Positions 6,991 through 35,014 of a stretch of 47,614 nt of DNA are shown here, one piece after another (position 1 is the first letter of the stretch; each line of letters opens with the position of its first letter). The notes beneath the pieces were generated by a model that was not told the origin of the DNA, ran no database searches, and saw only the letters and a program-made list of their open reading frames with translations. The translations under genes were made by a program, and so were the position numbers. Source of the DNA: Hyphomicrobiales bacterium (GTDB lineage Bacteria; Pseudomonadota; Alphaproteobacteria; Rhizobiales; Rhizobiaceae); assembly GCA_024224595.1 (NCBI GenBank), contig JAAENI010000898.1:1-47614 (forward strand), in the 5' to 3' direction.

Positions 6991-7754
6991 AACAAGCGTT
7001 TTTTGGATGTTTTCTCCCGCTTATGCTGTTTTTTTCCGATGCGGAAGGACTTTTCGACGAAATCGATATGAGCTTTTGATACCTTATCAGCTTCATCTGG
7101 GTTGCCGCTCAGGACAGCGTCGCCGATATCATGGTGCTGGCTCCGCAGTTTTTCTCCTGTGCCGTCAAGCGTTCTTAGATAGTCGCGATTGTAGAATACG
7201 CCGCGTCTGGTGAGATCATAGATGGAGGCCATCATGTGTATCAACATGGTGTTATGGCTGGCATCGACGATTGCCGAATGCAGATTGATATCGGCACGCT
7301 GTGCCGCCTCGGCGTCTTTTGCCTCGTGGGCAGCGTCTATATCCTCGATGATTTTCGAAATGGCTTCCCTGTCAGCCTGGGTGGCTCGCTCAGCTGCCAG
7401 ACGTGCCGCAAAACCTTCCTGTTCGCGGCGATATTCCAGATAGTCGTAGAAGGCAACCGGGTGTCGCGAGTAGATATCCATCAATGCTGGCGTCATCGCC
7501 TTTCCGATCAACGGTGCGATGAACGAGCCTTCGCCATGACGAACTTCCAATAATTTGCGTTCCTCCAGTTCCTTGAGGGCTTCGCGCAGTTTGGTGCGCG
7601 AGACGTTGAGCAGTTCCACCATGTCCCGTTCGGAAGGCAACTTGCGGCCCTCTTTTAATACGCCTGTCACGATCAGATCTTCTATTTGGTCGACTACTGC
7701 GTCCACAACAGAATCATGCTCAATCGGCTCGAACAAATATTTTGTAGTTTCCAT
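6975..7754 (-). CDS. GntR-family (FadR/FCD subfamily) transcriptional regulator, LldR/PdhR-like
   Basis: Track ORF 6975..7895 has an implausible N-terminal extension. ATG at 7754 gives METTKYLFEPIEHDSVVDAVVDQIEDLIVTGVLKEGRKLPSERDMVELLNVSRTKLREALKELE.., a GntR winged HTH followed by an FCD-type C-domain. It is divergent from the TRAP genes. Confidence 0.85.
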   Translation of the reverse strand: METTKYLFEPIEHDSVVDAVVDQIEDLIVTGVLKEGRKLPSERDMVELLNVSRTKLREALKELEERKLLEVRHGEGSFIAPLIGKAMTPALMDIYSRHPVAFYDYLEYRREQEGFAARLAAERATQADREAISKIIEDIDAAHEAKDAEAAQRADINLHSAIVDASHNTMLIHMMASIYDLTRRGVFYNRDYLRTLDGTGEKLRSQHHDIGDAVLSGNPDEADKVSKAHIDFVEKSFRIGKKQHKREKTSKKRLLLIEQ

Positions 7755-8004
7755 AACATGCTCTCGGAAAATTTCGACCTCAATCTGTTTGAGGTAGATA
7801 AAATAGACCATTTGAGGATCAATCAGGGTAAGCGCACCCACCGAGTGCCTCGCCAACCGTGACCCCATCATGATTTCAAATAGTAGAAAAATCATGAAAT
7901 TTCCAGAGAAAAATCAACTTATAAAGTGTTATATTTCTACGTTTACGTCACCGGGTGGAAATCCACAGCGTCAATTCTGTCTGGTCTGCACCTTGACTCT
8001 CCTT

Positions 8005-8037
8005 AATGGTATATATTATAAACCATTACCAATTGGT
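8005..8037. promoter_or_regulatory. candidate GntR operator(s) overlapping the TRAP operon promoter
   Basis: The inverted repeat AATGGT-N11-ACCATT (8005-8027) is followed immediately by the perfect palindrome ACCAATTGGT (8028-8037). The half-sites resemble PdhR/LldR boxes (ATTGGT..ACCAAT). They overlap a TTGACT (7993-7998) / TATAAA-like (8017-8022) promoter upstream of the binding-protein gene. Confidence 0.35.
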
Positions 8038-8100
8038 GTGAAAACCCCACATCAATCAGAGTCGCCGCAAAGGTGCGGTGGCGTTCAACTGGAGGATTCC

Positions 8101-9153
8101 ATGAATAAATCGCTTATCAATCTGGCGCTAGCTGCTGCCGTCACTCTTGCAGCTCCGGCAGCCTTGGCAGCCGACAAACTACTGCTAAAAACACCAATCG
8201 CGTTCTCGACCTCGCTGCCCGGTTTGGGATCACCCATTCCGCGGGTGGCGAAGCAACTGGCGCTGATGTCGAGCGGCTCGCTCAAGATGAAAGTTTATGA
8301 GCCGGGCAAACTCGTCAAGCCGTTTGAAATTCTCGGCGCCGTTTCATCCGGCAAGATTAATTCCGGTTACACAACGGCCGGCTACTGGGCTGGTAAAATC
8401 CCAGCTTCGCCCTTGTTCTCTGCCGTTCCTTTTGGTCCGGAGGCCGGTGAATATATGGCTTGGCTTTATTATGGAAACGGCTTGAAACTCTATCAGGAAA
8501 TGTACGATTCTGCCGGCTTCAACGTCCACGTCATCCCTTGCGCGATCATCGCTCCGGAGACTTCGGGTTGGTTCGCTAAAGAAATCAACTCGGCTGCTGA
8601 CCTGAATGGTCTGAAGATGCGTTTCTTCGGCATGGGCGGAAAAGTTATGCAGAAACTGGGTGTTGCAACCTCTCTGCTGCCTGGCGGCGAAATCTTTGCT
8701 GCGCTTGAAAAGGGCGCCATCGACGCGACCGAGTTTTCCATGCCGGCAATCGACGCCCGCCTTGGCTTCCACAAGTTGGTTAAATTCAACTATTTCCCGG
8801 GCTGGCATCAGCAGGCAACTGTGTTTGAATTGCTGGTCAACAAGGATGTGTGGAACAAGGCTTCGGATGCCCATAAGGCGATCATCAACAATGCCTGCAA
8901 GGCCTCAATGACCGACAGCTTTGCTGAAGGCGAAGCTATCCAGCACGACGCTCTGATCGACAATGTCGAAAACAATGGTGTGACGATCAAAAAGTGGTCG
9001 CCGAAAATGCTGAAGCTGTTCAAGGACACTTGGGCAGAGGTTGCAGTAGAGGAATCGGCTGACCCGTTCTTCAAGAAAGTACTCGATGACATGAACGCTT
9101 TCCGTGATGGTTATGCGCTCTGGAAAACTAATGCCTTCCTCCCAAGGCACTAA
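8101..9153 (+). CDS. TRAP transporter substrate-binding protein (DctP family, TakP-like)
   Basis: Track ORF starts at 7870. ATG 8101 follows GGAGG (8091-8095) and opens with a signal peptide MNKSLINLALAAAVTLAAPAALAADK. The mature part (...GYTTAGYWAGKIPASPLFSAVPFGPEAGEYMAWLYYGNGLKLYQEMY...) resembles the alpha-keto-acid-binding TakP branch. Confidence 0.87.
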   Translation: MNKSLINLALAAAVTLAAPAALAADKLLLKTPIAFSTSLPGLGSPIPRVAKQLALMSSGSLKMKVYEPGKLVKPFEILGAVSSGKINSGYTTAGYWAGKIPASPLFSAVPFGPEAGEYMAWLYYGNGLKLYQEMYDSAGFNVHVIPCAIIAPETSGWFAKEINSAADLNGLKMRFFGMGGKVMQKLGVATSLLPGGEIFAALEKGAIDATEFSMPAIDARLGFHKLVKFNYFPGWHQQATVFELLVNKDVWNKASDAHKAIINNACKASMTDSFAEGEAIQHDALIDNVENNGVTIKKWSPKMLKLFKDTWAEVAVEESADPFFKKVLDDMNAFRDGYALWKTNAFLPRH

Positions 9154-9222
9154 ACGTACAAGATGCGGGGCGGCGCATGAATGCCGCCTCGTTTTTCAAA
9201 ACTTCACCGGAGGATCAATCAA

Positions 9223-11286
9223 ATGGCCAATAAGAACACTATCCCGGATCCGATTGAGACCTTCGAAAACTTGCTGGAACATCCGGACACCGACCGGCAA
9301 CCGGCTGCCGTTTTCATTGACAAATCTGTAAAGACGATCGGCCACGTAGTCATGTGGGCCAATGTGCTGCTGATAGCTGCGATCGTGACCCAGGTGTCGA
9401 TGCGCTACTTGTTCAACCAGAACTTCCCGAAGCTGGACGAGATTCAATGGCATTTTTATGGTCTCGTTACGATGATTGGCATTTCTTATGCGCTGGTGAC
9501 CGACAGTCATGTGAGGGTAGACTTACTATATATGCAGGTAAGTCGTCGTGCCCAGAGGATTATCGAGATTATCGGTATTCTAGCGCTTCTTGCACCATTC
9601 ATTTATTTGATGATCGACCAGGGTTACGACTATTTCTACGAGAGTTTCCGGGTTAATGAACGCTCTGACAGCCCCACCGGCCTGCCTGCGCGCTGGGCGC
9701 TGAAAGCGGTCATCCCAATCAGTTTTGTCTTGTTGGCTCTGGCTGCAACTGCCCGGTTGATCCATGATGTTCATGCGCTAATCGGCGGGGATGCAGCCGA
9801 ATGTGCGGGAAAGAGTATTCGCCTCATCATCTGGGCGCTAGTTGGATTTGCGATTGTCGGCACGGCGCTTAGTTTCTTCGTGGAGACAACTGAGGAAAAG
9901 CTGGTCATCGCCATGTTCTTGACCTTTATCGGATTGCTCTTCACCGGCTATCCGGTGGCGTGGACTCTGGCCGGTGTCGGCGTTCTTTTCTGCGGTCTGG
10001 CCTATCTGTTCGACAATGACCTGATGGTGTGGACAGGGCTCGAGAGCACCTTGACCGGGCTTGACTACCTGACCCTTGGCGCCACGGTAAACCGTGTCTA
10101 TTCAACCATGTCGAGCGCGGTGCTGGTGGCCTTGCCAATGTTCATCTTCATGGGTTTGATGCTGGACGAAAGCGGCGTGGCCGAACGCCTAATGAATTCG
10201 ATGCAACGGTTGTTTGGCAAGACCCGTGGCGGGCTTGCGATAACGGTAACGCTGATCGGTATTATTCTCGCCGCGTCGACGGGAATCATCGGCGCATCAG
10301 TGGTGCTGTTGGGTGTCCTGTCCCTGCCGTCCATGATGCAGCAAAATTATTCCAAAACCCTTGCGGGTGGTGTCGTGGCAGCATCTGGTACGCTGGGGAT
10401 CCTGATCCCACCCTCGATCATGCTGGTGATCATGGCTGACCAGATGGCGCTGTCCGTGGGCGATCTTTTTATGGGCGCAGTTTTCCCGGGAATAATCATA
10501 GGAACACTTTACCTGCTGTATATTTTCACCATCTCGCTGATTAGCCCCAAGATCGCTCCGGTTCCCGCAGGCGCAAAATCTCCGGATTGGGCGGCGGTGA
10601 AGGACGTTTTGATCGCTGTCCTGCCTACACTTGGGCTGATCTTGGCTGTACTGGGATCGATCTTTGCGGGTATAACCACGCCGACCGAGGCGTCCGGCGT
10701 TGGCGCTCTTGGTGCGACCCTGCTTGCGCTTGGTTACCGTAAACTGGTATTTAAGAAATTCTGGAACGTGCTGGTCTCCACCTTCAATACCACTGCCTAT
10801 ATCTTCGCGATCTTCCTTGGTGCCACGGTATTCTCCTATGTCTTGCGAGAACTGGGTGGCGATGCGTTGATTGAAGAGGTCGTCGCCTCTACCGGTTTCG
10901 GAGCGATTGGAACCATATCCTTTATCCTGTTCATTGTATTCCTGCTTGGCTTCGTCCTCGACTGGATCGAGATCACCCTAATTGTGCTGCCGCTGATGCG
11001 TCCAATTGTAAACGGTCTTGGTCTTGACGTGCCGGGTTTCGGAGAAATTGACGAGCCCGCATTACTTTGGTTCGTGATCTTGGTTGCGGTGACGCTGCAG
11101 ACTTCGTTCCTGACGCCACCCGTTGGTTTCGCCTTGTTCTATCTCAAGGGAGTCTGTCCACCTGAAATCAAGCTGATGCACATCTACAAAGGCGTGGTGC
11201 CCTTCGTGTTGCTGCAGCTTAGCGGATTGGCGATCGTCTTCCTGTTCCCATGGCTGGTTACCTGGCTGCCATCCGTCGCATACTAA
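9223..11286 (+). CDS. TRAP transporter fused small/large permease (DctQ-DctM fusion)
   Basis: ATG 9223 follows GGAGGA and gives MANKNT... The N-terminal region of about 190 aa is DctQ-like with 4 TM helices. A DctM-like multi-TM domain follows, for about 687 aa in total. Confidence 0.87.
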   Translation: MANKNTIPDPIETFENLLEHPDTDRQPAAVFIDKSVKTIGHVVMWANVLLIAAIVTQVSMRYLFNQNFPKLDEIQWHFYGLVTMIGISYALVTDSHVRVDLLYMQVSRRAQRIIEIIGILALLAPFIYLMIDQGYDYFYESFRVNERSDSPTGLPARWALKAVIPISFVLLALAATARLIHDVHALIGGDAAECAGKSIRLIIWALVGFAIVGTALSFFVETTEEKLVIAMFLTFIGLLFTGYPVAWTLAGVGVLFCGLAYLFDNDLMVWTGLESTLTGLDYLTLGATVNRVYSTMSSAVLVALPMFIFMGLMLDESGVAERLMNSMQRLFGKTRGGLAITVTLIGIILAASTGIIGASVVLLGVLSLPSMMQQNYSKTLAGGVVAASGTLGILIPPSIMLVIMADQMALSVGDLFMGAVFPGIIIGTLYLLYIFTISLISPKIAPVPAGAKSPDWAAVKDVLIAVLPTLGLILAVLGSIFAGITTPTEASGVGALGATLLALGYRKLVFKKFWNVLVSTFNTTAYIFAIFLGATVFSYVLRELGGDALIEEVVASTGFGAIGTISFILFIVFLLGFVLDWIEITLIVLPLMRPIVNGLGLDVPGFGEIDEPALLWFVILVAVTLQTSFLTPPVGFALFYLKGVCPPEIKLMHIYKGVVPFVLLQLSGLAIVFLFPWLVTWLPSVAY

Positions 11287-11335
11287 CATTTCTTCCGGCA
11301 ATCCCCAAGCCGACAAACACAAACGGAGTAGTTCG

Positions 11336-12487
11336 ATGGGCCTCGCACATTGTCATAATTTTCAGGATTTTCGCGCTTTGGCGAAGCGGCGCCTGCCGGC
11401 GCCGATATTCAACTACATCGATGGCGCTGCTGATGACGAGGTAACCTATCGTCGCAACACCGAAGCTTTTGACAATTGTGATCTGGTGCCACGCGTGCTG
11501 GCCGGCGCAAGCGAAGCCGACCTATCGGTGACGGTCATGGGCCAGAGACTGGACATGCCGATTTACTGCTCACCCACGGCCCTGCAGCGCCTGTTTCACC
11601 ACCGCGGCGAACGCGCCGTCGCCGCTGCCGCCGCGAAATACAGAACCATGTTTGGCGTTTCCTCGCTTGGTACCGTCAGCCTGGAGGAGGTCGCAGAACA
11701 ACACGACGCGCCACAAGTTTTCCAGTTCTATTTTCATAAGGACCGCAGTTTGAACAAGGCTATGCTAGAGCGCGCAAAGGCAGCCGGCATCCCGGTCCTG
11801 ATGCTTACCGTGGATTCGATCGTCGGTGGCAACCGGGAGCGCGATCTGCGCACCGGATTTTCCATTCCCTTCCGGCTGACGCTCGGTGGTATGGCGAGCT
11901 TCGCCATGAAGCCCTTGTGGGGCATCAATTATGTGATCCACGAAAAATTTCGCCTGCCCCAGATTGAGGCGCACACTAAGCGGAAAGGCAGCGCAACTTC
12001 TTCTATTGCCGAGTACTTCAACGAAATGCTCGACCCTGCGTTGAACTGGAAAGACGCAGAGGAAATGTGCAAACTGTGGGACGGCCATTTTTGCCTTAAG
12101 GGAATAATGAGCGTGGAGGATGCAAAAAAGGCGGTCGATATCGGTTGTACCGGGATCATCATCTCGAACCACGGTGGGCGCCAGCTCGACGGGTCGCGAA
12201 GTCCGTTTGATCACCTGGCCGAAATTGTCGATGCTGTCGGAGACAAGGTCGACGTCATTTTAGACAGCGGTATTCAGCGCGGCACTCACGTGTTGAAGGC
12301 ATTGTCCCTAGGGGCAAAAGCTGTCAGCGGCGGTCGTTTTTATCTCTACGCTCTAGCTGCTGCCGGCCAACCTGGCGTTGAACGAGCGTTGGGCCTGATG
12401 CGCGCGGAAATCGAGCGCGACATGAAGCTAATGGGTTGTACCTCAGTTCCCCAACTGTCTGCAGAGAATTTGCGGTTTCGCGTGTAA
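11336..12487 (+). CDS. FMN-dependent alpha-hydroxy-acid dehydrogenase/oxidase (LldD / glycolate oxidase / mandelate dehydrogenase family)
   Basis: The ORF is 383 aa. It contains ...DFRALAKRRLPAPIFNYIDGAADDEVTYRRN..., ...LTVDSIVGGNRERDLR..., ...IISNHGGRQLDGS..., ...DSGIQRGTHVLKALSLGA... An ACGGAG RBS lies upstream. Confidence 0.88.
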   Translation: MGLAHCHNFQDFRALAKRRLPAPIFNYIDGAADDEVTYRRNTEAFDNCDLVPRVLAGASEADLSVTVMGQRLDMPIYCSPTALQRLFHHRGERAVAAAAAKYRTMFGVSSLGTVSLEEVAEQHDAPQVFQFYFHKDRSLNKAMLERAKAAGIPVLMLTVDSIVGGNRERDLRTGFSIPFRLTLGGMASFAMKPLWGINYVIHEKFRLPQIEAHTKRKGSATSSIAEYFNEMLDPALNWKDAEEMCKLWDGHFCLKGIMSVEDAKKAVDIGCTGIIISNHGGRQLDGSRSPFDHLAEIVDAVGDKVDVILDSGIQRGTHVLKALSLGAKAVSGGRFYLYALAAAGQPGVERALGLMRAEIERDMKLMGCTSVPQLSAENLRFRV

Positions 12488-25561: not shown

Positions 25562-25799
25562 TTGCGCAATTACCCTCAGAGTCTGAATCAATATTATTTG
25601 CCTGAATTTTCAATACTTTCGCGACATGACTTGTCTGTATTTCATTTTTTCAGCATTCTTTATTCGCTCCGATTGACTATTTCATGGTCGTATTTCCAGG
25701 CGGCGGAACCCTGCTTCCATCGATCCTGGTTGTGCTTAAGATTGATTGAGTGTCTGTGTGTGTGTAGACATTTCCAGTTTTTCCGTATGATCAAAAGGA

Positions 25800-26774
25800 T
25801 CATGCGAGTGCTTGTCGGACGTTCTCCAACATGGCAGCGCGTTCCTGACGTGCAGACAAAGCAGTGTGCATGTTAACTTTGACAAATTTGATTTCGACGT
25901 TTGGCTGAAGTTGGCCAATGAGATCCATGTCAGCGGAAATGACGGTCCCGAGCATGAAATAACCACCGCCAGACACAGCGTCACGATGAAGGATGATTGG
26001 CTCTGTTCCACCAGGCACTTGAATGGAGCCGTAAGGGTAGCAAGCATCCGTGATATTTGAGGGGTCAGAACCCGCACCAAATGGCGGCTCTCTGTCAACA
26101 AACTCCAGTGGAGATCCGCCTTGGAAACGATATCCCATACGGTCTGCTTCCGATGCTACCTTCCAGGTTTCATCAAAAAATTTCTGTCCAGCCGCTTTGG
26201 TTACACGGTGCCAATATAGACCCGGCATAACACGCAACTCAGCGGGTGCCCCTGGTTCACGGCGCAGGTTTGAGGGGATGCTTTGGTCGGCCTTAACAGT
26301 CCCCTTGTCGCTACCAATTGGCAGAACATCACCTGCTTGAACGGCTCGACCGTCGACACCGCCCAATGCGCCAATTGGATAGGTCGAGCGGCTTCCCAAA
26401 GCAGGCGGCGTATCAATGCCGCCTGAGATTGCTATGTAGCCGCGTGCTCCCGAACGTAAATAGTCAAAGGAAAGTGTCTGACCGGCCTTAACTTTGATTG
26501 CCGTCCAAGATTCGAGAACTTCGCCATCAATCTTTGGCGGCAAGTCTGCGCCTGTGACCGCAACAATTACATCCTCGGTAATTTCAAGCTCAGGGCCCAT
26601 GAAGACGCATTCCAGTCCCGCAGCTCCTTCATCGTTTCCGACAAGTAGGTTTGCGCAACGCATTGCAAAGCGATCCATGGCTCCGCCCATGGGAATACCA
26701 AGATGGTAATAACCGGGACGACCCAAATCCTGAATTGTGGTGGCAAATCCAGCTGTTTTTACATTAATCGGCAT
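25800..26774 (-). CDS. PxpC/KipA-like protein (biotin-dependent carboxyltransferase family, 'allophanate hydrolase subunit 2')
   Basis: The ORF is 324 aa. It contains ..TIQDLGRPGYYHLGIPMGGAMD.., ..RMGYRFQG.., ..PYGSIQVPGGTEPIILHRDAVSGGGY.. It overlaps the upstream gene by 11 nt. Confidence 0.87.
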   Translation of the reverse strand: MPINVKTAGFATTIQDLGRPGYYHLGIPMGGAMDRFAMRCANLLVGNDEGAAGLECVFMGPELEITEDVIVAVTGADLPPKIDGEVLESWTAIKVKAGQTLSFDYLRSGARGYIAISGGIDTPPALGSRSTYPIGALGGVDGRAVQAGDVLPIGSDKGTVKADQSIPSNLRREPGAPAELRVMPGLYWHRVTKAAGQKFFDETWKVASEADRMGYRFQGGSPLEFVDREPPFGAGSDPSNITDACYPYGSIQVPGGTEPIILHRDAVSGGGYFMLGTVISADMDLIGQLQPNVEIKFVKVNMHTALSARQERAAMLENVRQALA

Positions 26775-27639
26775 AGAGAGCCTCCATCAGATTAGCATTG
26801 GTTTCATCGATATTTTTATTGAATTCATCGAGTGAGAAGACGACTTCACGAATGCGCGGCTCGTAGGTGCCTGCTTCAACTTCAGCCAGACAACGATCGT
26901 ACTCCTCGCGGTCGATTGGTTTCCATTTCACTATGTCGCCCGGTTTGAAGAAAACCATGAAATCCTTCAAATAAGTTGTCTTCTGCTCTGGGTCATAGAT
27001 CGGCATAGGTGTAACGCCGAACATTTGATATCCGCCGGCACCTCGCACTGAATAGATGCACGAGAAGCAACCGCCATAACCCACCGTCAGTTTTGGTGTG
27101 TCGGTACGGGGGCGGAGGTATTTTGGAACCTGAATTTGTCGGTCACGATCCACCATTTGATAAAGGAATGGGAGGCCGGACACGAACCCAACCATCGACA
27201 CAAACCATGGAGAACCAGAATGGGCCTCTATGAATTCATCTACTGATTTGAAGCCGTTGATTTCGGCCGCATACTCAATGTCCGTAGAATTCGGATCTTG
27301 ATGACGTTCGCGAAACCGCATCAATGTCTCATGTGTCCATGGGTCTTGATAATAGACAGGGATTTCGACGATGCGGGTGTTTAGAACCGGTTCGGCCTGA
27401 TCCGCCGTTTCTTCCATACGCTGAAGCTCCGCCATGAGATCATCAGGGTGGATTTGATCTGGATTGAATTTAATCTGAAATGAAGCATTTGCCGGGCAGA
27501 TTTCAGTGACGCCTTTAATATTGGCATCCCGCACTGCATTGGTCATTGAGAGCGTTTTAAAAAACGCCTCAAGCGACATCTCTTCGCTGACTTCCACAAA
27601 GATGTGTTCGTCGGCTCCGAATGTAAATCTCGACGCCAT
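26764..27639 (-). CDS. PxpB/KipI-like protein ('allophanate hydrolase subunit 1'), long form
   Basis: The ORF is 291 aa. It contains ..FGADEHIFVEVSEEMSLE.., ..WFVSMVGFVSGLPFLY.., ..GGCFSCIYSVRGAGGYQMFG.. (a cyclophilin-like fold signature shared with the urea carboxylase CT domain). It starts 2 nt after the biotin carboxylase stop. Confidence 0.85.
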   Translation of the reverse strand: MASRFTFGADEHIFVEVSEEMSLEAFFKTLSMTNAVRDANIKGVTEICPANASFQIKFNPDQIHPDDLMAELQRMEETADQAEPVLNTRIVEIPVYYQDPWTHETLMRFRERHQDPNSTDIEYAAEINGFKSVDEFIEAHSGSPWFVSMVGFVSGLPFLYQMVDRDRQIQVPKYLRPRTDTPKLTVGYGGCFSCIYSVRGAGGYQMFGVTPMPIYDPEQKTTYLKDFMVFFKPGDIVKWKPIDREEYDRCLAEVEAGTYEPRIREVVFSLDEFNKNIDETNANLMEALYAD

Positions 27640-27641
27640 AA

Positions 27642-29021
27642 TTATAAGCCTCCTTTACTGCTGAGTTTATTTGAATTGGCTTCAAGCCATGGCTCAAGCC
27701 ACTTGGTATGCACGTTTCCAGACTTGACTTCCGGGTCATCGGCTAATGCCAGAAACAAGGGAACTGTTGTTTTGAGATCTCCAAGTTTCAACTCACTTAC
27801 AGCACGCGTCAGGCGAGTGATCGCGGCTTCCCTATTGTCGGCATGAACTATCAGTTTGCCCAAAAGTGAATCGTAGAAAGGTGGAATCTGATAGCCTTGG
27901 TAGAGGAAATGATCAAAACGAACGCCGGGTCCTCCAGGCGCGCGCATTTCACCAACTATTCCCGGGAACGGCGCGAAGTTATTAGATGGGTCTTCAGCGT
28001 TGATCCGCACTTCGATTGCATGACCACGCACAACAATATCGTTTTGCGTTACAGAAAGCGGTTCACCACCGGCGATTCTGATCATTTCAGCCAGGAGATC
28101 GATACCGACGATTGCTTCGGTTACCGGATGTTCAACCTGAATTCGAGTGTTCATCTCAATAAAGTAAAATTCTCCTGACTTGTCATCGTAGAGATACTCA
28201 ACGGTGCCGGCGCCGCGATAGTTTACGGCTTTGGCTAATGCTACAGCTGAAGAGCAAAGTTTCTCACGCACTTCATCTGTAAGAGCAGAAGAGGGGGCCT
28301 CTTCCCAAACTTTTTGACGGCGTCGTTGTAGGGAACATTCGCGCTCATAACAATGAACAAAATTCTGACCGTCACCAAGAATTTGAACTTCGATGTGGCG
28401 GGCGTCATCAATGAGTTTTTCAAGATAGAGACTACCGTCACCAAACGCTGCTTTTGCTTCGGTCGATGCTTGTGGCGCAAGTGTTGCAAACTCTTCAGCA
28501 TTTTCCGCAACACGAATACCACGACCACCGCCGCCAGCGGTTGCCTTGATCATCACAGGATATCCTATTGAAGCTGCAAGCGTTTGCGCGACTTCCATAT
28601 CATCTATGACACCATCACTGCCCGGAACTGTAGGGACATTTGCGCTTTGCGCGGCCCTGCGGGCAGAGGCTTTATCCCCCATCGAGCGGATCATTTCGCC
28701 GGTTGGGCCGACGAATGCCATTCCTGCAGCTTCTACGGCATCGGCAAAATTCGCATTCTCCGCCAGGAATCCATATCCTGGATGAACTGCATCGGCACCT
28801 GTATCTTTGGCAGCTTTTAAGACCGCCTCGACGTTGAGATATGATTTTGCGGCTGAAGCCGGGCCTATTTCGACAGCTTCGTCAGCCATTTCAACAGCTA
28901 AAGAACTTGCGTCAGCCGCGCTATAAACCTGAACTGTTTTGATGCCGAGTTCTTTTGCTGCACGAATGATGCGGACAGCAATTTCACCCCTATTGGCAAT
29001 GAGAAGTTTGTTAATTGACAT
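27642..29021 (-). CDS. biotin carboxylase (AccC-like, ATP-grasp)
   Basis: The ORF is 459 aa. It contains MSINKLLIANRGEIAVRIIRAAKELGI.., ..HPGYGFLAENANFA.., ..GGGGRGIRV.., ..EMNTRIQVEHPVTE.. Confidence 0.93.
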   Translation of the reverse strand: MSINKLLIANRGEIAVRIIRAAKELGIKTVQVYSAADASSLAVEMADEAVEIGPASAAKSYLNVEAVLKAAKDTGADAVHPGYGFLAENANFADAVEAAGMAFVGPTGEMIRSMGDKASARRAAQSANVPTVPGSDGVIDDMEVAQTLAASIGYPVMIKATAGGGGRGIRVAENAEEFATLAPQASTEAKAAFGDGSLYLEKLIDDARHIEVQILGDGQNFVHCYERECSLQRRRQKVWEEAPSSALTDEVREKLCSSAVALAKAVNYRGAGTVEYLYDDKSGEFYFIEMNTRIQVEHPVTEAIVGIDLLAEMIRIAGGEPLSVTQNDIVVRGHAIEVRINAEDPSNNFAPFPGIVGEMRAPGGPGVRFDHFLYQGYQIPPFYDSLLGKLIVHADNREAAITRLTRAVSELKLGDLKTTVPLFLALADDPEVKSGNVHTKWLEPWLEANSNKLSSKGGL

Positions 29022-29033
29022 AGGTAGAACCGA

Positions 29034-29276
29034 TCACCCTTCTATCACGGCTAAGACTTGGCCAGGCATGATCGCATCCGCGTCATCCACTTCGAAGGAA
29101 ATGATTTTGCCCGCCGTATCTACTGAGACCGGTGTGAAGGTTTTCATGACCTCTATAAGACCAATTACATCACCAACTTCAACAGTATCTCCAATTTCTT
29201 TGTAGTTAGGCTCTTCAGGCGAGGGCTTGCGATAAAACATACCTGGCAGCTGAGAGCGAATTTCGTGTTTAGCCAT
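29034..29276 (-). CDS. minimal biotin carboxyl carrier protein (biotinyl domain only)
   Basis: The ORF is 80 aa. The biotinyl-lysine context is ..GLIEVMKTFTPV.. An AAGGAG RBS lies 7 nt upstream of the ATG. Confidence 0.85.
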   Translation of the reverse strand: MAKHEIRSQLPGMFYRKPSPEEPNYKEIGDTVEVGDVIGLIEVMKTFTPVSVDTAGKIISFEVDDADAIMPGQVLAVIEG

Positions 29277-29309
29277 GATAAACTCCTTAAGTTTTGGATT
29301 GGCTGCGCT

Positions 29310-30041
29310 TTATGCGTCAGCCAAATGTTCCGAGAGGGCCTCTTTGACCGCTTGTGCGATCTCCAAGACATTAGGCGTATCGGAATGAATGCAAACTGTT
29401 TCTGCACGGACAGGGCTTTCGACTCCGGATACACTGACAACGATCCTATCACGAACAGCCCGAAGCGCCTTTTCGGCAACTATTGCAGGATCAAGTGTCG
29501 GATGTTCCCTGGTGATCAAAAGATTGCCATTGTCATCATAATCCAGATCAGCGAAATACTCTGCACGAAATTCCAGGCCACGAGCGGTATAGATTTCTTC
29601 ATGCAGTGTTCCGCTTAATCCGAATATCGGAACATCGAGATGTTCTGATGCGTCACAGATTGCATGGGCAATATGCTCTTGCCGGGCAGCCATCCCATAA
29701 AGAGAGCCGTGCGGTTTGAGATGAGCAAGCGGGACACCAGCGATCTTTAGAAATTCATTCAGAGCACCAATCTGATAAATAACGATATTGGCCATCTCCT
29801 CGCGGTCAATCTTCATCTCTCGGCGACCAAAGCCGGCCAAATCGGGAAGTGAAAAATGCGCGCCTACCTTTACATTGTGCTTCTTGGCGAGTTCCACTGT
29901 TGTTCGTATATGGTTAGGATCTGATCCGTGAAAGCCACAGGCTACATTAGCCTCTGTGATATACGGCATGATGCCTTCATCATTGCCCATTTTATAGAGG
30001 CTAAAGCTTTCACCCATGTCGCAGTTAATATCGATTGCCAT
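29310..30041 (-). CDS. PxpA / LamB-YcsF family lactam-hydrolase subunit
   Basis: The ORF is 243 aa. It contains MAIDINCDMGESF.., ..ANVACGFHGSDP.., ..GAHFSLPDLAGFGRREM.., ..HLKPHGSLYG.. Confidence 0.9.
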   Translation of the reverse strand: MAIDINCDMGESFSLYKMGNDEGIMPYITEANVACGFHGSDPNHIRTTVELAKKHNVKVGAHFSLPDLAGFGRREMKIDREEMANIVIYQIGALNEFLKIAGVPLAHLKPHGSLYGMAARQEHIAHAICDASEHLDVPIFGLSGTLHEEIYTARGLEFRAEYFADLDYDDNGNLLITREHPTLDPAIVAEKALRAVRDRIVVSVSGVESPVRAETVCIHSDTPNVLEIAQAVKEALSEHLADA

Positions 30042-30051
30042 GTTCTGATTC

Positions 30052-31080
30052 CTAATCCTTCAGTGATGCGACGTATCGAAGCCGGATTTGATCGGCGATC
30101 ACGGCCAAGATGAGCAGGGAGCCAAGAACGACTGTCTGCAAATAGGATTCAATTCGAGCGAGGTTCATGCCATTTTGGACAAGACCAATGAAGATAGCAC
30201 CCATAATTACGCTTTCCAGCCGGCCAACACCGCCTCGCATGCTCACCCCTGCGATCACGCATGCGGCAATTGACTGGAGGGGCATTGAAGCACCAATATT
30301 GGCTTCACCGGTATCAAGTCTGGCGGTGAGCAACATCCCCGCAACCGCAGTTAATGCTGCGCAAAGGACATAGGTAGTGAAGAGCGTCAAACGAGTATTT
30401 ATTCCAGACAGCTCAGCGGCTTTTATGTTCCCACCTACGGCGTAGAAGTAGCGTCCAAAACGGGTTCGATAGAGAAAGACGTAGAGCAACACGGCTATTA
30501 TAGCGGCCACATACAGGGGCGAGGGTATGCCGATAAAAGTACCGAACCCGAAGGTGTCACCAAAGGATTGTGGCATTCCATAGACCGGCACCCCGCCGGT
30601 CAGGAAAAGGGCGATGCCAAAACCCACGGATGTCATGCCAAGAGACATCATGAAGGGAGAAACGCCGAAGAAGGCGACACCGATACCGTTGGAAACACCA
30701 ATCATCGTTCCAGCGGCGATGCCTGCAAAACAGCCTAGCAATATTGCCAGCCAAACTGCATCGGGCATCGCGGTATAAACCGTCGCCATGGTGAGTGCAC
30801 CAACAACCGAGGTGAGGGCAAGAGTCGTTCCTACCGAGAGATCAAACCCGCCTGTTAGCAAGGCTAACATTTGGCCCATTGAAACAATGGTCAGGTAGAC
30901 CGATTGTCTCAACACGTTCATGAGGTTTTTACTGGTCATGAAATTATCTGACATTGAAGTGAATACAACCAATGCGATCACCAGCAGTATCGGCAATATG
31001 CCCAGTTTTACAAAGAGGCGTTTTAGAAAAGTTCCAAACGACTGTGCCGGTTTTGGATGCGCAATAGTTGAACTCGACAT
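30052..31080 (-). CDS. ABC transporter permease (RbsC/AraH-type, CUT2 family)
   Basis: The ORF is 342 aa and multi-TM. It contains ..NLMNVLRQSVYLTIVSMGQMLALLTGGFDLSVG.. Its start overlaps the ATPase stop (ATGA-type junction). Confidence 0.9.
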   Translation of the reverse strand: MSSSTIAHPKPAQSFGTFLKRLFVKLGILPILLVIALVVFTSMSDNFMTSKNLMNVLRQSVYLTIVSMGQMLALLTGGFDLSVGTTLALTSVVGALTMATVYTAMPDAVWLAILLGCFAGIAAGTMIGVSNGIGVAFFGVSPFMMSLGMTSVGFGIALFLTGGVPVYGMPQSFGDTFGFGTFIGIPSPLYVAAIIAVLLYVFLYRTRFGRYFYAVGGNIKAAELSGINTRLTLFTTYVLCAALTAVAGMLLTARLDTGEANIGASMPLQSIAACVIAGVSMRGGVGRLESVIMGAIFIGLVQNGMNLARIESYLQTVVLGSLLILAVIADQIRLRYVASLKD

Positions 31081-32648
31081 TATGCGGGGCCCTTTTCGAA
31101 GAAATTTGAAAGCACGTTTTCTTCTGTAATTTCTTCACCCACCAACTCCGCCTGGATTCGACCCTGGTAAAAAACATATGCTCGATTAGTAAGGTTTAAG
31201 ACTTCCGGAAGGTCCGAAGAAATGAGAAGAATTGCTGCGCCGTTGGCACAAAGTTCAGCAATGAATTCATAAATCGCAGCTCTTGTTCCAACATCGACGC
31301 CGACTGTTGGTTCATCAAAAACAATGAAATCAAATTTACGCGTCAGGCTTCGTGCCAGCATGAGTTTTTGTTGATTGCCACCAGAAAACATGCCTGCGTC
31401 TCTTTCGCTTTTGCGGGGCGACAAGTTGAGGCGCTCAGTAAGCTGATCAACGATCTTAGCCTCGCCTTTTTTGCTCAGGAATACCCCCCCTAATTTGGAA
31501 AAAGGTGCTATATCTAACGAAGCAATTGAGATGTTTTCGCGAGCAGGACGCATCATCATCAAACCGTCTTTGCGGCGATCTGACGGCAGATACATGAATC
31601 CTCGCTTCAACATGGCTTTAGTTTTTGGTTTTGCGATTTTCTCCCCTTTGAATGTTATCGAACCACTCTCAATGTCTAAGGCTCCAAAACAGGCTTGAGC
31701 AAACTTTGATTTTCCTGACCCCACCAATCCAGCAAAACCCACAATCTCGCCTCTGCGAACTGTCACAGATGCGCCGTTCACCGAACCATCGATGGTAATC
31801 AAGTCATCAACCTCAAGCGCCATCTCGCCGGGTTCAAAATTGATATTGGGAAAAATCTGTCCGATCTCACGACCGGTCATCAGGTCTACAAGCTTGTCTT
31901 CTGATGAGGATCTGGCATCCACTGTTTCGATATATTTACCGTCCCGAAGAATAGTAATCCGATCTCCTATCTCCTTGATCTCGGCCATCCGGTGGGTGAT
32001 GTAGATGATGCCGACATTTTGTGTCTTAAGCCGATTGATCAACTTAAACAGCTGCTCAGTTTCGTGGTTGGTCAACGAGGCTGTTGGTTCATCAAGAATT
32101 AAAACTGACAGGTTAGACCTGAAAGCCTTGGCAATTTCCACCATCTGCTGTTCAGCGCGCGTCAGGTTATCCACACGTGTGGTTGGAGACAGATGGAAAT
32201 CGAGGCTCTCTAGAATTTCTTTCGCATTTTCTCTTTGTGCTTTGGGTTGCAAAAAACCCTTCTTTGTGGGCTCAGCACCCAAGAACATATTTTCAGCAAT
32301 AGTCATTTGCGGGATTAGCGAAAACTCCTGAAACACTGCACTAATTCCCAATTCCCGCGCAGCATGAACACCAGCCAGCTCAACGATATTACCATTGAAA
32401 AGTATCTGGCCAGCTGTTGGCATATTTGCTCCCGCAAGCATGGAAATTAATGTTGATTTTCCCGCACCATTCTCACCGAACAGCACATGGACTTCGCCCG
32501 CATTGAGTTTGAAGTTCATCTCGTCCAGCGCACGAATTCCAGGGTAATCTTTGGTCAATCCGACAGTCTCAAGGAGGGAGCACGCACCATCACGGCGCGC
32601 GCTCTCTTCAAGTCGTTTGCTGGGACTAATCCCGCCTAGCTCCTGCAT
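31080..32648 (-). CDS. ABC transporter ATP-binding protein with duplicated ATPase domains (RbsA-type)
   Basis: The ORF is 522 aa. It has two Walker A motifs (GENGAGKST, GLVGSGKSK) and signature motifs (..FSGGNQQK..). It starts 2 nt after the binding-protein stop. Confidence 0.92.
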   Translation of the reverse strand: MQELGGISPSKRLEESARRDGACSLLETVGLTKDYPGIRALDEMNFKLNAGEVHVLFGENGAGKSTLISMLAGANMPTAGQILFNGNIVELAGVHAARELGISAVFQEFSLIPQMTIAENMFLGAEPTKKGFLQPKAQRENAKEILESLDFHLSPTTRVDNLTRAEQQMVEIAKAFRSNLSVLILDEPTASLTNHETEQLFKLINRLKTQNVGIIYITHRMAEIKEIGDRITILRDGKYIETVDARSSSEDKLVDLMTGREIGQIFPNINFEPGEMALEVDDLITIDGSVNGASVTVRRGEIVGFAGLVGSGKSKFAQACFGALDIESGSITFKGEKIAKPKTKAMLKRGFMYLPSDRRKDGLMMMRPARENISIASLDIAPFSKLGGVFLSKKGEAKIVDQLTERLNLSPRKSERDAGMFSGGNQQKLMLARSLTRKFDFIVFDEPTVGVDVGTRAAIYEFIAELCANGAAILLISSDLPEVLNLTNRAYVFYQGRIQAELVGEEITEENVLSNFFEKGPA

Positions 32649-32649
32649 A

Positions 32650-33723
32650 TTATTCCACTCGGAATACTGGCTTGAAGCCGTTTGGAGCCAAAGTGGAGGT
32701 AGGGTCGAAGTCTTTTACATTGTCACCGCTGACAACATAAAGCTTTGGACCAACGTGTTTTTCATAAGGCTTGCCATCGAGAACACGTACAGCAATGTCA
32801 ACTGCGATACGGCCTTGAACCGCTGTGGAGTCCGTTGGAGCAGCCAAAATCTGGCCACGTTTGATGCCTTGGTACACACCAGGTGTGAAATAGTAGGCAG
32901 CAATTTTGACATTGTCAGTGAGATCTTGCGAACGAAGGATTGGAACTGCAGCTTCAGCAGTCACAGCTGTACCAACGATGTATTTGAGATCTGGGTGGGT
33001 TGTCAAAGTGTCTTCAACCAGTTTGGCCTGAACCTCCTTGCCTGTATCACCATATTTGGTTTCGACGAGTTCAATGTCGCTGCCTTTGATGGCTTCAGCA
33101 AAACCAGAGTTACCAGCTTCAACCCAACCAGCACCGGCTGGTCCAGGGAACCATGCCACTTTAACTTTGCCAGAACCTGCCGGGTGGAGTTTTGCGAGGT
33201 ATTCTCCTGTCTTGGCGCCCATTTCGCCGAACGAAACGAGTGATTTCGCAGTTAACTCCATTGAATTGATGCCGTTGATGACGTCAATCACTGGAATACC
33301 TTTGCCTGCAATTTCTTTTACAAGATTGGCGATACCGTCGGCAGAAATGGCACCGATGATGACCGCTTTGGCACCAGCAGCAACGCAGTCTTCAATTTGT
33401 GAAATCTGTTTGTTGAGTTCGGTGTAACCACCTGCTTCGACAACCTGCACTTTTACACCGAGTCGTTTGGCTTCTTCGGTAACACCGTAGTTCACACCCA
33501 GCCAATAGGCATCCTTCATGTGTGGAAAGGAAACGCAAATCTCATGTTTTGTTGATGCTTTTTCGAGTGCTTCATATTTGATGTCCTTGCGTGGACTTTT
33601 CATATTGAATGCTGGCTCCCAAACCTGAACAGGATATGGAAACCAGTTTTCTGCCGAAACAGAACTGACAGCGCTGGCGGTGATTGCCGCAGTCGCCATT
33701 AGACCAAGTATGATCTTTCTCAT
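32650..33723 (-). CDS. periplasmic substrate-binding protein, TorT-like branch of the type I (sugar-type) PBP fold
   Basis: The ORF is 357 aa with a signal peptide MRKIILGLMATAAITASAVSSVSA. The segments ..ICVSFPHMKDAYWLGVNYGVTEEAKRLGVKVQVVEAGGYTELNKQISQIEDCV.. and the C-terminal ..APNGFKPVFRV closely resemble my recollection of E. coli TorT (..ALYPSLKDSYWLSLNYG..VLEAGGY.. and ..SPGGFRPVY..). Confidence 0.82.
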   Translation of the reverse strand: MRKIILGLMATAAITASAVSSVSAENWFPYPVQVWEPAFNMKSPRKDIKYEALEKASTKHEICVSFPHMKDAYWLGVNYGVTEEAKRLGVKVQVVEAGGYTELNKQISQIEDCVAAGAKAVIIGAISADGIANLVKEIAGKGIPVIDVINGINSMELTAKSLVSFGEMGAKTGEYLAKLHPAGSGKVKVAWFPGPAGAGWVEAGNSGFAEAIKGSDIELVETKYGDTGKEVQAKLVEDTLTTHPDLKYIVGTAVTAEAAVPILRSQDLTDNVKIAAYYFTPGVYQGIKRGQILAAPTDSTAVQGRIAVDIAVRVLDGKPYEKHVGPKLYVVSGDNVKDFDPTSTLAPNGFKPVFRVE

Positions 33724-34090
33724 GATGTTACTCCCTTGAGAATTTCTTCTGGAGGTGAATTGAAAACCTCAAGCCACCGTTACCGCGACAATTCAGTCTT
33801 CTGACTTCTGACAAATTGCTGCCTTTTGATTTTCCAATAAATCAATCGTATAGTAAAATTCGAAATTGAAGTTATATTTATTGGTAATATCGATATAATG
33901 ATTGAAATTCCAAAATGAAATATTCGAACGGCATCTTTCAAATATTCAGAAATCATACTCCTTAAGTGTATATTTTTATGGAGTTTTAAGACCAAGTAAC
34001 CATATAATTGGCGTTGGAATTTTTGAAGCAATGCGATATGATCTGTAAAATGAGAATCGTATTTTACCATAGAGGATATTGTTTTTTCCG

Positions 34091-35014
34091 ATGGAGCCAA
34101 CATTTAGGCAACTTCGCTACATGATAGCCGCGGCCAGTGCGGGCCAAGTTTCAAAAGCTGCGATGGACATCAATGTGTCGCAATCTGTCATCACTACTGC
34201 CATCAAATCGTTGGAAGAAATTGTTGGAACGTCTCTATTTGAAAGACACTCATCTGGCATCACACTGACCTATGAAGGCAATCTGTTTTTAGAACATGCA
34301 CAGCATATAATTGACTCTGTTGAAGAAGCTGTTCGAATTCCGCGTCGTATTAAAGATGATGTTAAAGGTTCGATCAACCTTGCTGTTTCTTACACGGTTG
34401 CCGGCTACTTTTTGCCGAAACCTCTGGCACAGTTTTCCAGAGCATTCCCCAATGTGAAAATCAACCTGCATGAAGCTGATCGATCAACGATAGAAGAAGG
34501 GCTTATTGCAAGCGGGTTTGATTTAGCTGTGTTGTTAACGTCGAACATCATCAATCACGAAGAACTTTCTCATGTTACTTTGATGCGATCACGACGCAGG
34601 CTCTGGGTAAATACCCATCATAAATTTCTTAAGCAGCAATCTGTAACGCTTCAGGATATTTCGGAAGAACCTTATATCATGTTAACCATAGATGAGGCCA
34701 GTAATACCGCTCAAAGCTACTGGAACAAGACGCCTTACAAACCTGAAACATTGTTTAGAACGTCGTCTGTAGAAGCTGTTCGGAGCATGGTAGCCAATGG
34801 CATGGGCATTTGCATTCTTTCCGACATGGTTTACCGGCCATGGTCACTTGAAGGACGGCGTGTTGAGGTGATCGAAGTTTCAGAAAAAATTCCTACGATG
34901 GATGTTGGTCTGGCTTGGTCAAACAACGCCGTTCATAATGAAGCCGCAAAGGCTTTCATTGAATTCATCCATCTCTCAATTGGCCCCGAACAGCCTTCAG
35001 TCTCAAATATCTGA
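34091..35014 (+). CDS. LysR-family transcriptional regulator, divergent from the ABC/biotin-enzyme operon
   Basis: Track start 34079 is TTG. ATG 34091 gives MEPTFRQLRYMIAAASAGQVSKAAMDINVSQSVITTAIKSLEE.., a LysR HTH followed by a substrate-binding domain. Confidence 0.88.
   Translation: MEPTFRQLRYMIAAASAGQVSKAAMDINVSQSVITTAIKSLEEIVGTSLFERHSSGITLTYEGNLFLEHAQHIIDSVEEAVRIPRRIKDDVKGSINLAVSYTVAGYFLPKPLAQFSRAFPNVKINLHEADRSTIEEGLIASGFDLAVLLTSNIINHEELSHVTLMRSRRRLWVNTHHKFLKQQSVTLQDISEEPYIMLTIDEASNTAQSYWNKTPYKPETLFRTSSVEAVRSMVANGMGICILSDMVYRPWSLEGRRVEVIEVSEKIPTMDVGLAWSNNAVHNEAAKAFIEFIHLSIGPEQPSVSNI

Follow-up and report, generated by a model that had tools for sequence, protein, structure and literature searches.

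What reaction is served by a group of nine genes whose parts are currently spread by public databases over three unrelated systems? The genes lie in a 47,614-nucleotide stretch of DNA from a Hyphomicrobiales bacterium (contig JAAENI010000898.1; the whole stretch analyzed, 47.6 kb, is called the window below), where eight close-packed open reading frames (ORFs) run on the minus strand from 33723 to 25800 and a LysR-type regulator gene is divergently transcribed. The eight ORFs of this cassette encode an ATP-binding cassette (ABC) importer, a hydrolase of the PxpA (LamB/YcsF) family, a biotin carboxyl carrier protein (BCCP), a biotin carboxylase (BC), and two carboxyltransferase (CT) subunits. 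We argue that the nine genes very probably constitute one importer-plus-biotin-enzyme unit. The function that we favor for it, with a probability of about 0.5 judged from protein families, conserved residues and gene neighborhoods, is N-carboxylation of an imported small lactam followed by PxpA-catalyzed hydrolysis to an omega-amino acid.

The gene layout agreed exactly, in coordinates and in spacing, with an original prediction made from this sequence, which had described eight minus-strand ORFs between 33723 and 25800 with junctions of -11 to +33 nt. In the ORF list of the window, the successive junctions are +1, -1, +10, +33, +12, +2 and -11 nt. Pfam and NCBIfam profile searches, in which NCBIfam scores were compared with the cut-offs of the models, likewise matched the protein families and the divergent LysR gene that the prediction had named, and the Pfam E-values of the cassette proteins were far beyond chance. 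The features are as follows.

34091..35014, plus strand: LysR-type regulator (HTH_1 + LysR_substrate)
33724..34090, no strand: divergent promoter/operator region, 367 bp, AT-rich (sequence)
32650..33723, minus strand: TorT-like substrate-binding protein, periplasmic, CUT2 family (Peripla_BP_4)
31080..32648, minus strand: ABC ATPase with two fused nucleotide-binding domains, ribose/arabinose type (2x ABC_tran)
30052..31080, minus strand: ABC permease, ribose/allose type (BPD_transp_2, PF02653)
29310..30041, minus strand: PxpA / LamB-YcsF family hydrolase (LamB_YcsF)
29034..29276, minus strand: biotin carboxyl carrier protein, 80 aa (Biotin_lipoyl)
27642..29021, minus strand: biotin carboxylase, ATP-grasp (Biotin_carb_N + CPSase_L_D2 + Biotin_carb_C)
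26764..27639, minus strand: carboxyltransferase subunit C-D, 291 aa, PxpB/KipI relative (CT_C_D)
25800..26774, minus strand: carboxyltransferase subunit A-B, 324 aa, PxpC/KipA relative (CT_A_B)

The two CT subunits were examined for whether they belong with PxpB and PxpC or with urea carboxylase. The 291-aa protein (CT_CD) matched CT_C_D with an E-value of 3e-41, had residues 808-1087 of urea carboxylase as its best NCBIfam match, and failed the PxpB equivalog (72 vs 145.6). The 324-aa protein (CT_AB) matched CT_A_B (E 2e-89), passed TIGR00724 (275 vs 230) and failed the PxpC equivalog (216 vs 500); it shares 35% identity with E. coli PxpC. Like urea carboxylase, it contains a 10-aa GxxPSNxxD segment that is deleted in E. 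coli PxpC. We compared CT_CD in an alignment with remote members of the long-form family and also with E. coli PxpB, P. horikoshii PH0987, B. subtilis KipI, M. smegmatis MSMEG_0436 and K. lactis urea carboxylase. Long-form CT_CD proteins and urea carboxylase share an insertion of ~19 residues after PVxYxD, a further 6-residue insertion and a C-terminal extension of ~45 residues relative to PxpB-type proteins, and they have a PKY lysine and GGYQ where PxpB-type proteins have PR and GGWQ. Residue K173 of CT_CD aligned with K1605 of K. lactis urea amidolyase (numbered 1012 in chain 3VA7), the proposed general base of that enzyme, where a K1605A substitution severely inhibits activity (PMC5770610). 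K173 is near-invariant in 28 diverse family members and all 89 close homologues examined have PKY, while PxpB, KipI, PH0987 and MSMEG_0436 all have Arg at the K173 position. We therefore regard K173 as the putative general base of CT_CD. With such signatures in both subunits and the NCBIfam scores in agreement, the CT pair is of the urea-carboxylase type and not of the PxpB/PxpC type, so that the earlier description of a dissociated urea-carboxylase-like enzyme is apt. Against the urea carboxylase equivalog TIGR02712, the four pieces scored 532.7, 238.6, 122.4 and 23.2 bits (cut-off 1303.85). An AlphaFold model of CT_CD, built from a shallow alignment, reached a pLDDT (predicted local distance difference test score) of 58 with the cyclophilin-like domain unresolved, and was not used for fold comparison. 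CT_CD is the best-conserved protein of the cassette (73-87% identity), above BC.

These residues also bear on the idea that the KipI- and KipA-like proteins sequester a biotin carrier instead of catalyzing carboxyl transfer. Such a role has a precedent in the mycobacterial KipA/KipI homologues MSMEG_0435/0436, which bind the biotin of AccA3 and have no detectable urea carboxylase activity (PMC13012033). The catalytic lysine, however, is invariant in the cassette family and absent from the mycobacterial and KipI proteins, and we give this idea hardly any credence.

The CT genes lie directly downstream of the BC and BCCP genes, whose products retain the expected motifs. BC contains all three BC Pfam domains, passes NF009471 (757 vs 686 bits), and retains in translation an intact GGGGRG loop and EMNTRIQVEHPVTE catalytic motif. 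The carrier matched Biotin_lipoyl (E 3e-11) and NF005457 (118.9, cut-off 87), and its putative biotinyl-lysine is K44 in EVMKT; the lysine of this EVMK(T/S)F motif was invariant in 85 of 85 homologues. In 25 related loci, a gene for the biotin transporter BioY directly follows CT_AB (e.g., L001 11872-12471, L003 11871-12470, L088 17915-18517). By sequence, then, BC, BCCP and CT qualify as a multi-subunit biotin-dependent carboxylase, and the biotin dependence that we predict for it is backed by the invariant EVMK lysine and the adjoining BioY. Public records name BC and BCCP as acetyl-CoA carboxylase subunits, which is explained by the two proteins passing NF009471 and NF005457, respectively, and this misannotation has likely been propagated. 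We rejected an acetyl-CoA carboxylase identity, as AccA and AccD genes are absent from the window.

The hydrolase gene could suggest a simpler function. PxpA matched LamB_YcsF with an E-value of 1e-85. It shares 34% identity with its E. coli namesake, and the family motifs DxGE, ACGFH, KPHG and C(I/L)H(S/G)D are all conserved in it. The cassette might thus be a variant 5-oxoprolinase that imports pyroglutamate, with BC and BCCP in an accessory, regulatory or biotin-assisting role. PxpA does pass the subfamily model NF003814 (269 vs 226), databases use the name "5-oxoprolinase subunit B family", and 5-oxoproline is a common metabolite. We nevertheless consider a 5-oxoprolinase improbable. PxpA failed the 5-oxoprolinase equivalog (238 vs 392), as the two CT subunits failed the PxpB and PxpC ones, and identity to the E. 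coli proteins is 34-35%; CT_CD is of the urea-carboxylase type, with Lys where PxpB has Arg. In addition, BC, BCCP and BioY would be superfluous for such an enzyme, its product glutamate would need neither of the GABA-catabolic enzymes GabT and GabD that are described below, and a sugar-type importer with a TorT-like protein would be odd for an anion.

The first three genes of the operon predict this importer. The binding protein matched Peripla_BP_4 (E 3e-33) and starts with a signal-peptide-like segment that is disordered in its AlphaFold model (pLDDT 84.9). The ATPase has two ABC_tran domains (E 5e-53), with AraG, XylG and RbsA as its best NCBIfam matches, each under its cut-off, and the permease matched PF02653 (E 1e-35) and is 74-86% identical among loci with the importer upstream. 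A Peripla_BP_4 protein, a double ATPase and a BPD_transp_2 permease in one operon point to an ABC importer of the CUT2 type. The closest solved structure to the binding protein was 4YHS (E 5e-138, template modeling score 0.89/0.96, 63% identity in the structural alignment), which is the ABC binding protein BBta_2440 of Bradyrhizobium sp. BTAi1. In a variant of the cassette whose importer lies downstream, the binding proteins share 70-82% identity with 4YHS, so that the structure of a receptor of this system has already been solved. The second structural match was TorT of V. parahaemolyticus (3O1H, 36% identity).

Public records call the binding protein and its homologues (P0285-P0376) "TMAO reductase system periplasmic protein TorT", TMAO being trimethylamine N-oxide. 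The protein scored 416 bits against the TorT model NF008185 (cut-off 200) and 298.7 against TIGR02955 (cut-off 310). TorT has the same fold and family, but it acts through TorS signaling, outside any transporter, whereas the cassette protein precedes an ABC ATPase and permease; it heads such a pair in 49 loci. The window contained no TorS, TorR or TorCAD, and no sensor kinase or response regulator. Because an ABC ATPase and permease stand behind the gene and the Tor partners are absent, the name is almost certainly wrong. TMAO sensing by the binding protein was rejected, as the window has no Tor genes. As the protein is related to a receptor for TMAO, which is neutral and of 75 Da, a small polar ligand would fit.

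Taken at face value, the database names would describe a TorT TMAO sensor, an acetyl-CoA carboxylase paralogue and a 5-oxoprolinase that happen to be neighbors. NCBIfam models do name TorT and acetyl-CoA carboxylase BC and BCCP above their cut-offs. With neither the Tor partners nor AccA/AccD in the window, and with the nine genes traveling together across bacterial orders, we judge a chance adjacency of this kind to be as remote as carrier sequestration.

That the genes travel together came from a survey of other genomes. CT_CD has thousands of relatives in protein databases, the top 120 of which, at 81-99% identity, belong to Rhodobacteraceae, Roseibium/Labrenzia, Hoeflea, Ahrensia, Breoghania and Candidatus Puniceispirillum; more distant family members were found, from protein records, in Rubrobacteraceae, Nocardia and Thermoplasmatota. 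In a collection with one genome per species, at least 577 stretches matched CT_CD, the best 80 of them at 73-87% identity and from Rhodobacterales, Hyphomicrobiales, Puniceispirillales, Dongia, Pelagibius, Marinobacter and Arenicellales. The survey took in these close relatives (at least 73% identity), and we classified 89 related loci, 69 of them informative, as follows.

Importer upstream, as in the window: 41 loci
Importer downstream of the core, with PxpA only ~40% identical: 8 loci
TorT-like importer absent, with a flank long enough to judge: 20 loci
Contig too short for classification: 20 loci

The order in the 41 loci is LysR, then binding protein, ATPase, permease, PxpA, BCCP, BC, CT_CD and CT_AB. 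The full set of nine, with BioY after it, has this gene order in P. marinum (SAR116), Paracoccus fistulariae and Roseibium, where the proteins are 56-87% identical. The five-gene core from PxpA to CT_AB was collinear in every locus long enough for judging. The importer accompanies this core in 49 of the 69 informative loci, and when we started instead from the binding protein, three of three independently picked homologues (70-75% identical) headed a full cassette with BioY. Locus classes and reverse test together indicate that importer, regulator and enzyme genes are co-conserved, on which the original prediction had staked itself beforehand; its term "orphan", in contrast, does not hold for an arrangement found in so many genomes. 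In the importer-downstream variant (L056, L059, L063, L067, L075, L076, L078 and L085), CT_CD is 73-76% identical to the window protein and PxpA 37-42%, so that PxpA splits into two sequence classes (61-82% vs 37-42% identical).

Two observations on individual loci were made in passing. A small cupin-like protein of ~100 aa is encoded just 3' of the cassette or of BioY in 14 loci of several types (e.g., L008 12357-12767, L021 11899-12240, L069 12535-12840), and is absent from the window. On one metagenome contig (L002 5354-5614), a Puniceispirillum-type core has its LamB cut to 86 aa and neither importer nor LysR upstream, and is a rearranged or decaying copy.

In order to look for clues to the substrate, all ORFs of the related loci were clustered and representatives scanned with profiles. 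Two mutually exclusive contexts emerged around the core, one in importer-bearing and one in importer-free loci. Of the 49 importer-bearing loci, 12 had a gene for gamma-aminobutyrate (GABA) transaminase (gabT) at a distance of up to 10 kb, and nine had one for succinate-semialdehyde dehydrogenase (SSADH; GabD); gabT was absent from this range in all 40 other loci. When examples were scored, seven of eight aminotransferases exceeded the cut-off of a GABA transaminase model (TIGR00700 or NF005692), and two of two aldehyde dehydrogenases exceeded that of TIGR01780 (SSADH). The arrangements of gabT vary over at least four orders: it directly follows CT_AB in Hoeflea, and directly follows the permease in the importer-downstream type, where five of eight loci have it; Roseibium and Granulosicoccus have it in a separate module (LysR-gabT-gabD, or a LuxR-type regulator with gabT), and in Marinobacter it is encoded on the opposite strand. 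By our own estimate, chance would place gabT there in ~1% of cases per 20 kb (1-2 copies per ~4-Mb genome), with the proviso that the loci are phylogenetically non-independent. The varied arrangements suggest that gabT was recruited repeatedly, despite the kinship among the loci, and these neighbors narrow the predicted substrate towards a gamma-lactam.

The importer-free loci (among them L034, L038, L048, L052, L054, L064, L066, L068, L072, L077 and L083; CT_CD ~75% identical) have other neighbors. HyuA/HyuB of the ATP-dependent hydantoinase/oxoprolinase family occur in 8 of the 20, plus 3-4 unclassifiable loci, and a PotD-like ABC system, tandem short-chain dehydrogenases/reductases, an isochorismatase-like hydrolase, an old yellow enzyme (OYE) flavoenzyme, an amidase, a polysaccharide-deacetylase-like protein and CobW were also found. 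The importer-free core thus probably serves another pathway, possibly that of a ureide.

In one rival reading of the cassette, urea or a small ureide would be taken up by the importer and carboxylated by a split urea carboxylase (or one acting on an N-carbamoyl compound), with PxpA standing in for allophanate hydrolase and cleaving the N-carboxy-urea. The hydantoinase-type genes, isochorismatase-like hydrolase and amidase beside importer-free cores would fit ureide breakdown; the CT signatures, including the equivalent of K1605, are those of urea carboxylase; and JGI names relatives "urea carboxylase". Furthermore, A. baumannii requires mumC, a gene in one operon with mumL, for growth on urea (PMC5050338); mumL is presumably of the LamB family, judging by its gene name, as that paper gives it no predicted function. 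On the other hand, this LamB gene was dispensable for urea use, no allophanate hydrolase is encoded in or beside the cassette, only ~6 variant loci have a generic amidase, and gabT/gabD adjacency is peculiar to the importer-bearing form. The importer does not belong to the Urt type, its control is by a dedicated LysR and not by nitrogen regulation, and an Rfam search found no riboswitch in the window, including none linked to guanidine or urea. We therefore think it unlikely that the cassette serves urea or a ureide.

Slightly less unlikely, in our estimation, is the same chemistry on another amide: delta-valerolactam, a cyclic imide such as succinimide, hydantoin, a substituted pyrrolidinone or an acyclic amide. 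All of the carboxylase and hydrolase evidence would apply equally, homologues of GabT and GabD also handle 5-aminovalerate, and there are two classes of PxpA. The eighth aminotransferase tested, encoded directly upstream of PxpA in an importer-free locus (L043), is an AptA-type omega-aminotransferase. However, the known substrates of the PxpA family are five-membered lactams, and the adjoining aminotransferases score as GABA transaminases above curated cut-offs. Breakdown of imides or hydantoins would also call for an additional amidase or decarbamoylase, and most loci encode neither.

The preferred reading, carboxylation and opening of a lactam, would operate in the following order. The LysR regulator would turn on the eight-gene operon, which we infer to be co-transcribed, when the compound is present, and the TorT-like protein would pass a small neutral cyclic amide to the ribose-type ABC importer. 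In the cytoplasm, BC would use ATP and bicarbonate to carboxylate biotin on K44 of the carrier. The carboxybiotin would enter the two-subunit CT, where K173 would act as the base and the carboxyl group would be moved to the amide nitrogen of the substrate. The N-carboxy-lactam would be an activated, imide-like species whose ring PxpA (LamB/YcsF) could open, and the resulting N-carboxy-amino acid would shed CO2 spontaneously. The net reaction would be lactam + ATP + H2O to omega-amino acid + ADP + inorganic phosphate, with CO2 acting catalytically. The likeliest case would be conversion of 2-pyrrolidinone (gamma-butyrolactam) to GABA, by a dissociated bacterial counterpart of fungal lamA/lamB. 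This compound is favored by the association with gabT/gabD, by the precedent in fungi and by what Pxp enzymes are known to act on; as the specific substrate, however, we propose 2-pyrrolidinone only tentatively. We are similarly guarded about the broader suggestion that the cassette is a never-described biotin-dependent "lactam amidolyase", in which unfavorable lactam opening is driven by transient N-carboxylation and not by phosphorylation. The amidolyase logic of the original prediction, carboxylation of an amide nitrogen ahead of hydrolysis, is strengthened and narrowed by these results.

Several points weigh against this assignment. Biotin would in principle be dispensable for the reaction, given that a three-gene PxpABC paralogue of P. 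putida, with no biotin genes of its own, hydrolyzes butyrolactam. The closest solved carboxyltransferase, that of the stand-alone urea carboxylase of K. lactis, acts on urea, and the A. baumannii operon that combines urea carboxylase with LamB gives a urea phenotype with mumL dispensable (PMC5050338). Only about a quarter of importer-bearing loci adjoin gabT, and the window has none. GabT/GabD-type enzymes also process 5-aminovalerate, so that the ring may be of another size, and the core may serve more than one substrate, as the ~40%-identical PxpA variant and the HyuA/HyuB contexts (CT_CD ~75% identical) suggest. Lastly, the ligand in 4YHS is presumably bis-tris, a buffer molecule.

The regulator is predicted to belong to the same unit. 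The LysR protein matched HTH_1 (E 7e-17) and LysR_substrate (E 4e-39) in Pfam and reached no NCBIfam equivalog cut-off; its ORF opens at a TTG at 34079, with ATG 34091 as the likelier start. A divergent, adjacent LysR gene, 45-77% identical, was present in 40 of the 41 importer-upstream loci, and 47 of all 49 importer-bearing loci have a LysR gene. Domains, orientation and kept pairing fit a regulator of a divergent catabolic operon. In the intergenic region, an inverted-repeat scan found a dyad, AATATTCGAA-N8-TTCAAATATT, at 33919-33946, which is a candidate LysR box, and further dyads at 33856-33867 and 33826-33845. Alignment of this region with that of three other genomes gave nothing usable, and the LysR boxes remain candidates for that reason. 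Promoter-like hexamers cluster there, yet not above shuffled expectation, and a promoter and terminator scan found sites no more numerous than in shuffled sequence. A 107-aa minus-strand ORF (33780-34103) spans this AT-rich region, with the dyads inside it, and is probably spurious.

The setting of the cassette suggests how it was acquired. Between 14000 and 47614, the block of LysR and operon is the sole minus-strand segment; the remainder of these ~14-47 kb consists of housekeeping genes on the plus strand on both sides, with glnD, murJ, trpS, tsaB, rimI, fur and olsA on one side and miaB, phoH, ybeY, corC, lnt, metK, trmB, rimP and nusA on the other. The GC content of the cassette is 0.48-0.50, about 5 points above the 0.44 of the flanks, and the flanking genes of the window were shared by none of the 89 related loci. 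On the strength of these three features, the cassette looks like a horizontally acquired island. Gene order on either side of it fits a Hyphomicrobiales-like alphaproteobacterium of about 45% GC. Its 3' end is convergent with olsA, and BioY is absent at 25562-25800, unlike in the 25 loci noted above; the whole window encodes no AccA/AccD, allophanate hydrolase, BioY or gabT. A second accessory-looking cassette occupies 6975-12487, where the GC content climbs to 0.55 at 10-12 kb from surrounding values of 0.44-0.50. There, a GntR-family regulator (GlcC/PdhR/LldR-like) is divergent from three ORFs, which encode a 427-aa protein without family match, a 701-aa fused large permease of the tripartite ATP-independent periplasmic (TRAP) type, and a flavin mononucleotide-dependent L-lactate-dehydrogenase-like enzyme.

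If the lactam assignment is correct, it would extend the small set of biotin-dependent carboxylases by a new type of reaction, in which a lactam amide nitrogen is carboxylated ahead of ring hydrolysis, and would make biochemical sense of decades-old fungal lamA/lamB genetics. Gene blocks that many transcriptome studies list as "unknown", such as P. aeruginosa PA0492-0496, would gain a function, and a systematic misnaming would be corrected (TorT for the binding protein, acetyl-CoA carboxylase for BC and BCCP, and "5-oxoprolinase" or "allophanate hydrolase" for the others). With at least 577 matches, including abundant marine lineages, the substrate is probably an environmentally relevant small nitrogen compound. 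2-Pyrrolidinone or a near relative would then be a significant source of carbon and nitrogen that has been overlooked in marine and soil habitats, where hundreds of Proteobacteria, such as SAR116, roseobacters, Stappiaceae, Hoeflea and Marinobacter, would take it up through a high-affinity importer. The binding protein, with its solved orthologue 4YHS, and the adjoining LysR sensor offer handles on the substrate, and the regulator might serve as a lactam biosensor.

In comparison with known systems, the cassette combines the urea-carboxylase family with a Pxp hydrolase, a combination that, by its sequence relatives, is common among bacteria. In the literature searched, we found no biochemically characterized orthologue and no paper that characterizes an enzyme of BC, BCCP, split CT and PxpA, nor any biochemical reconstitution of lamA/lamB or of a cassette system. 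The earlier statement that no characterized example was known has to be qualified by the genetic precedents of lamA/lamB, the mum operon and PP_2920-2. The same note had mentioned LamB-BCCP-BC-KipI-KipA blocks of unassigned function, and one such block is probably that of P. aeruginosa PA0492-PA0496, where PA0493 is BCCP-like, PA0494 is BC-like, the flanking genes are conserved hypotheticals, and the function is stated to be unknown (PMC6249292, PMC5521831). This block is likened to the cassette by description, and no TorT-like importer is reported for it.

Among proteins of the same folds, cryo-electron microscopy of the mycobacterial complex showed that biotin on a BCCP domain can be bound directly by KipA/KipI-fold proteins (PMC13012033). 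MSMEG_0435/0436 differ from the cassette proteins in that key urea carboxylase residues are absent, Arg stands at the K173 position and the BCCP is borrowed from another enzyme. The A. baumannii operon mumTLUHC encodes an NRAMP transporter, mumL, an allophanate hydrolase homologue and a urea carboxylase of the biotin carboxylase family, and growth on urea needs mumC but not mumL or mumH (PMC5050338). With its regulator MumR it is a regulated operon like the cassette, again likened by description, but it has an NRAMP manganese transporter instead of an ABC importer, an allophanate hydrolase homologue, and a urea phenotype. The urea carboxylases and amidolyases of K. lactis (3VA7, 5I8I) and Oleomonas sagaranensis resemble the cassette in joining BC and BCCP to an A-B/C-D carboxyltransferase. 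They do so in one polypeptide, whereas the cassette uses four and has PxpA in place of allophanate hydrolase, and the substrate of the cassette enzyme is probably not urea.

A bacterial precedent for the proposed substrate comes from P. putida, where one PxpABC paralogue acts on 5-oxoproline (PP_4575-7) and another on butyrolactam (PP_2920-2); complementation tests showed both to be specific, and a separate activator belongs to each (bioRxiv 10.1101/2021.12.09.472016). Together with the 5-oxoprolinase of E. coli, they show that PxpA-family systems open five-membered lactams, and PP_2920-2 shows that the family does open 2-pyrrolidinone, there without dedicated biotin genes. PxpABC and PP_2920-2 share with the cassette a PxpA-family hydrolase, a PxpC-like subunit and an adjoining activator, as well as the ATP-driven opening of a five-membered lactam that we propose for the cassette. 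They differ in having no biotin genes and a short-form PxpB (~220 aa, against 291 aa for CT_CD) with Arg and without the insertions or tail of the urea-carboxylase type; in this comparison the P. putida system was likened by description and the sequences compared were those of E. coli.

In fungi, the lactam catabolism genes lamA/lamB of A. nidulans belong to the AmdR regulon, together with genes for GABA transaminase and GABA permease (PMC8016842), and ycsF and lamB were linked early to the use of 2-pyrrolidinone (PMC3412718). This system resembles the cassette in its LamB/PxpA-family protein and in its genetic tie to a set of GABA genes. A. nidulans LamA (UniProt P38095) we take to be a urea-carboxylase-like protein in which BC, CT and BCCP are fused in a single polypeptide. 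In the bacterial cassette, the enzyme is instead split into four proteins, and an ABC importer, a LysR regulator and often BioY have been added.

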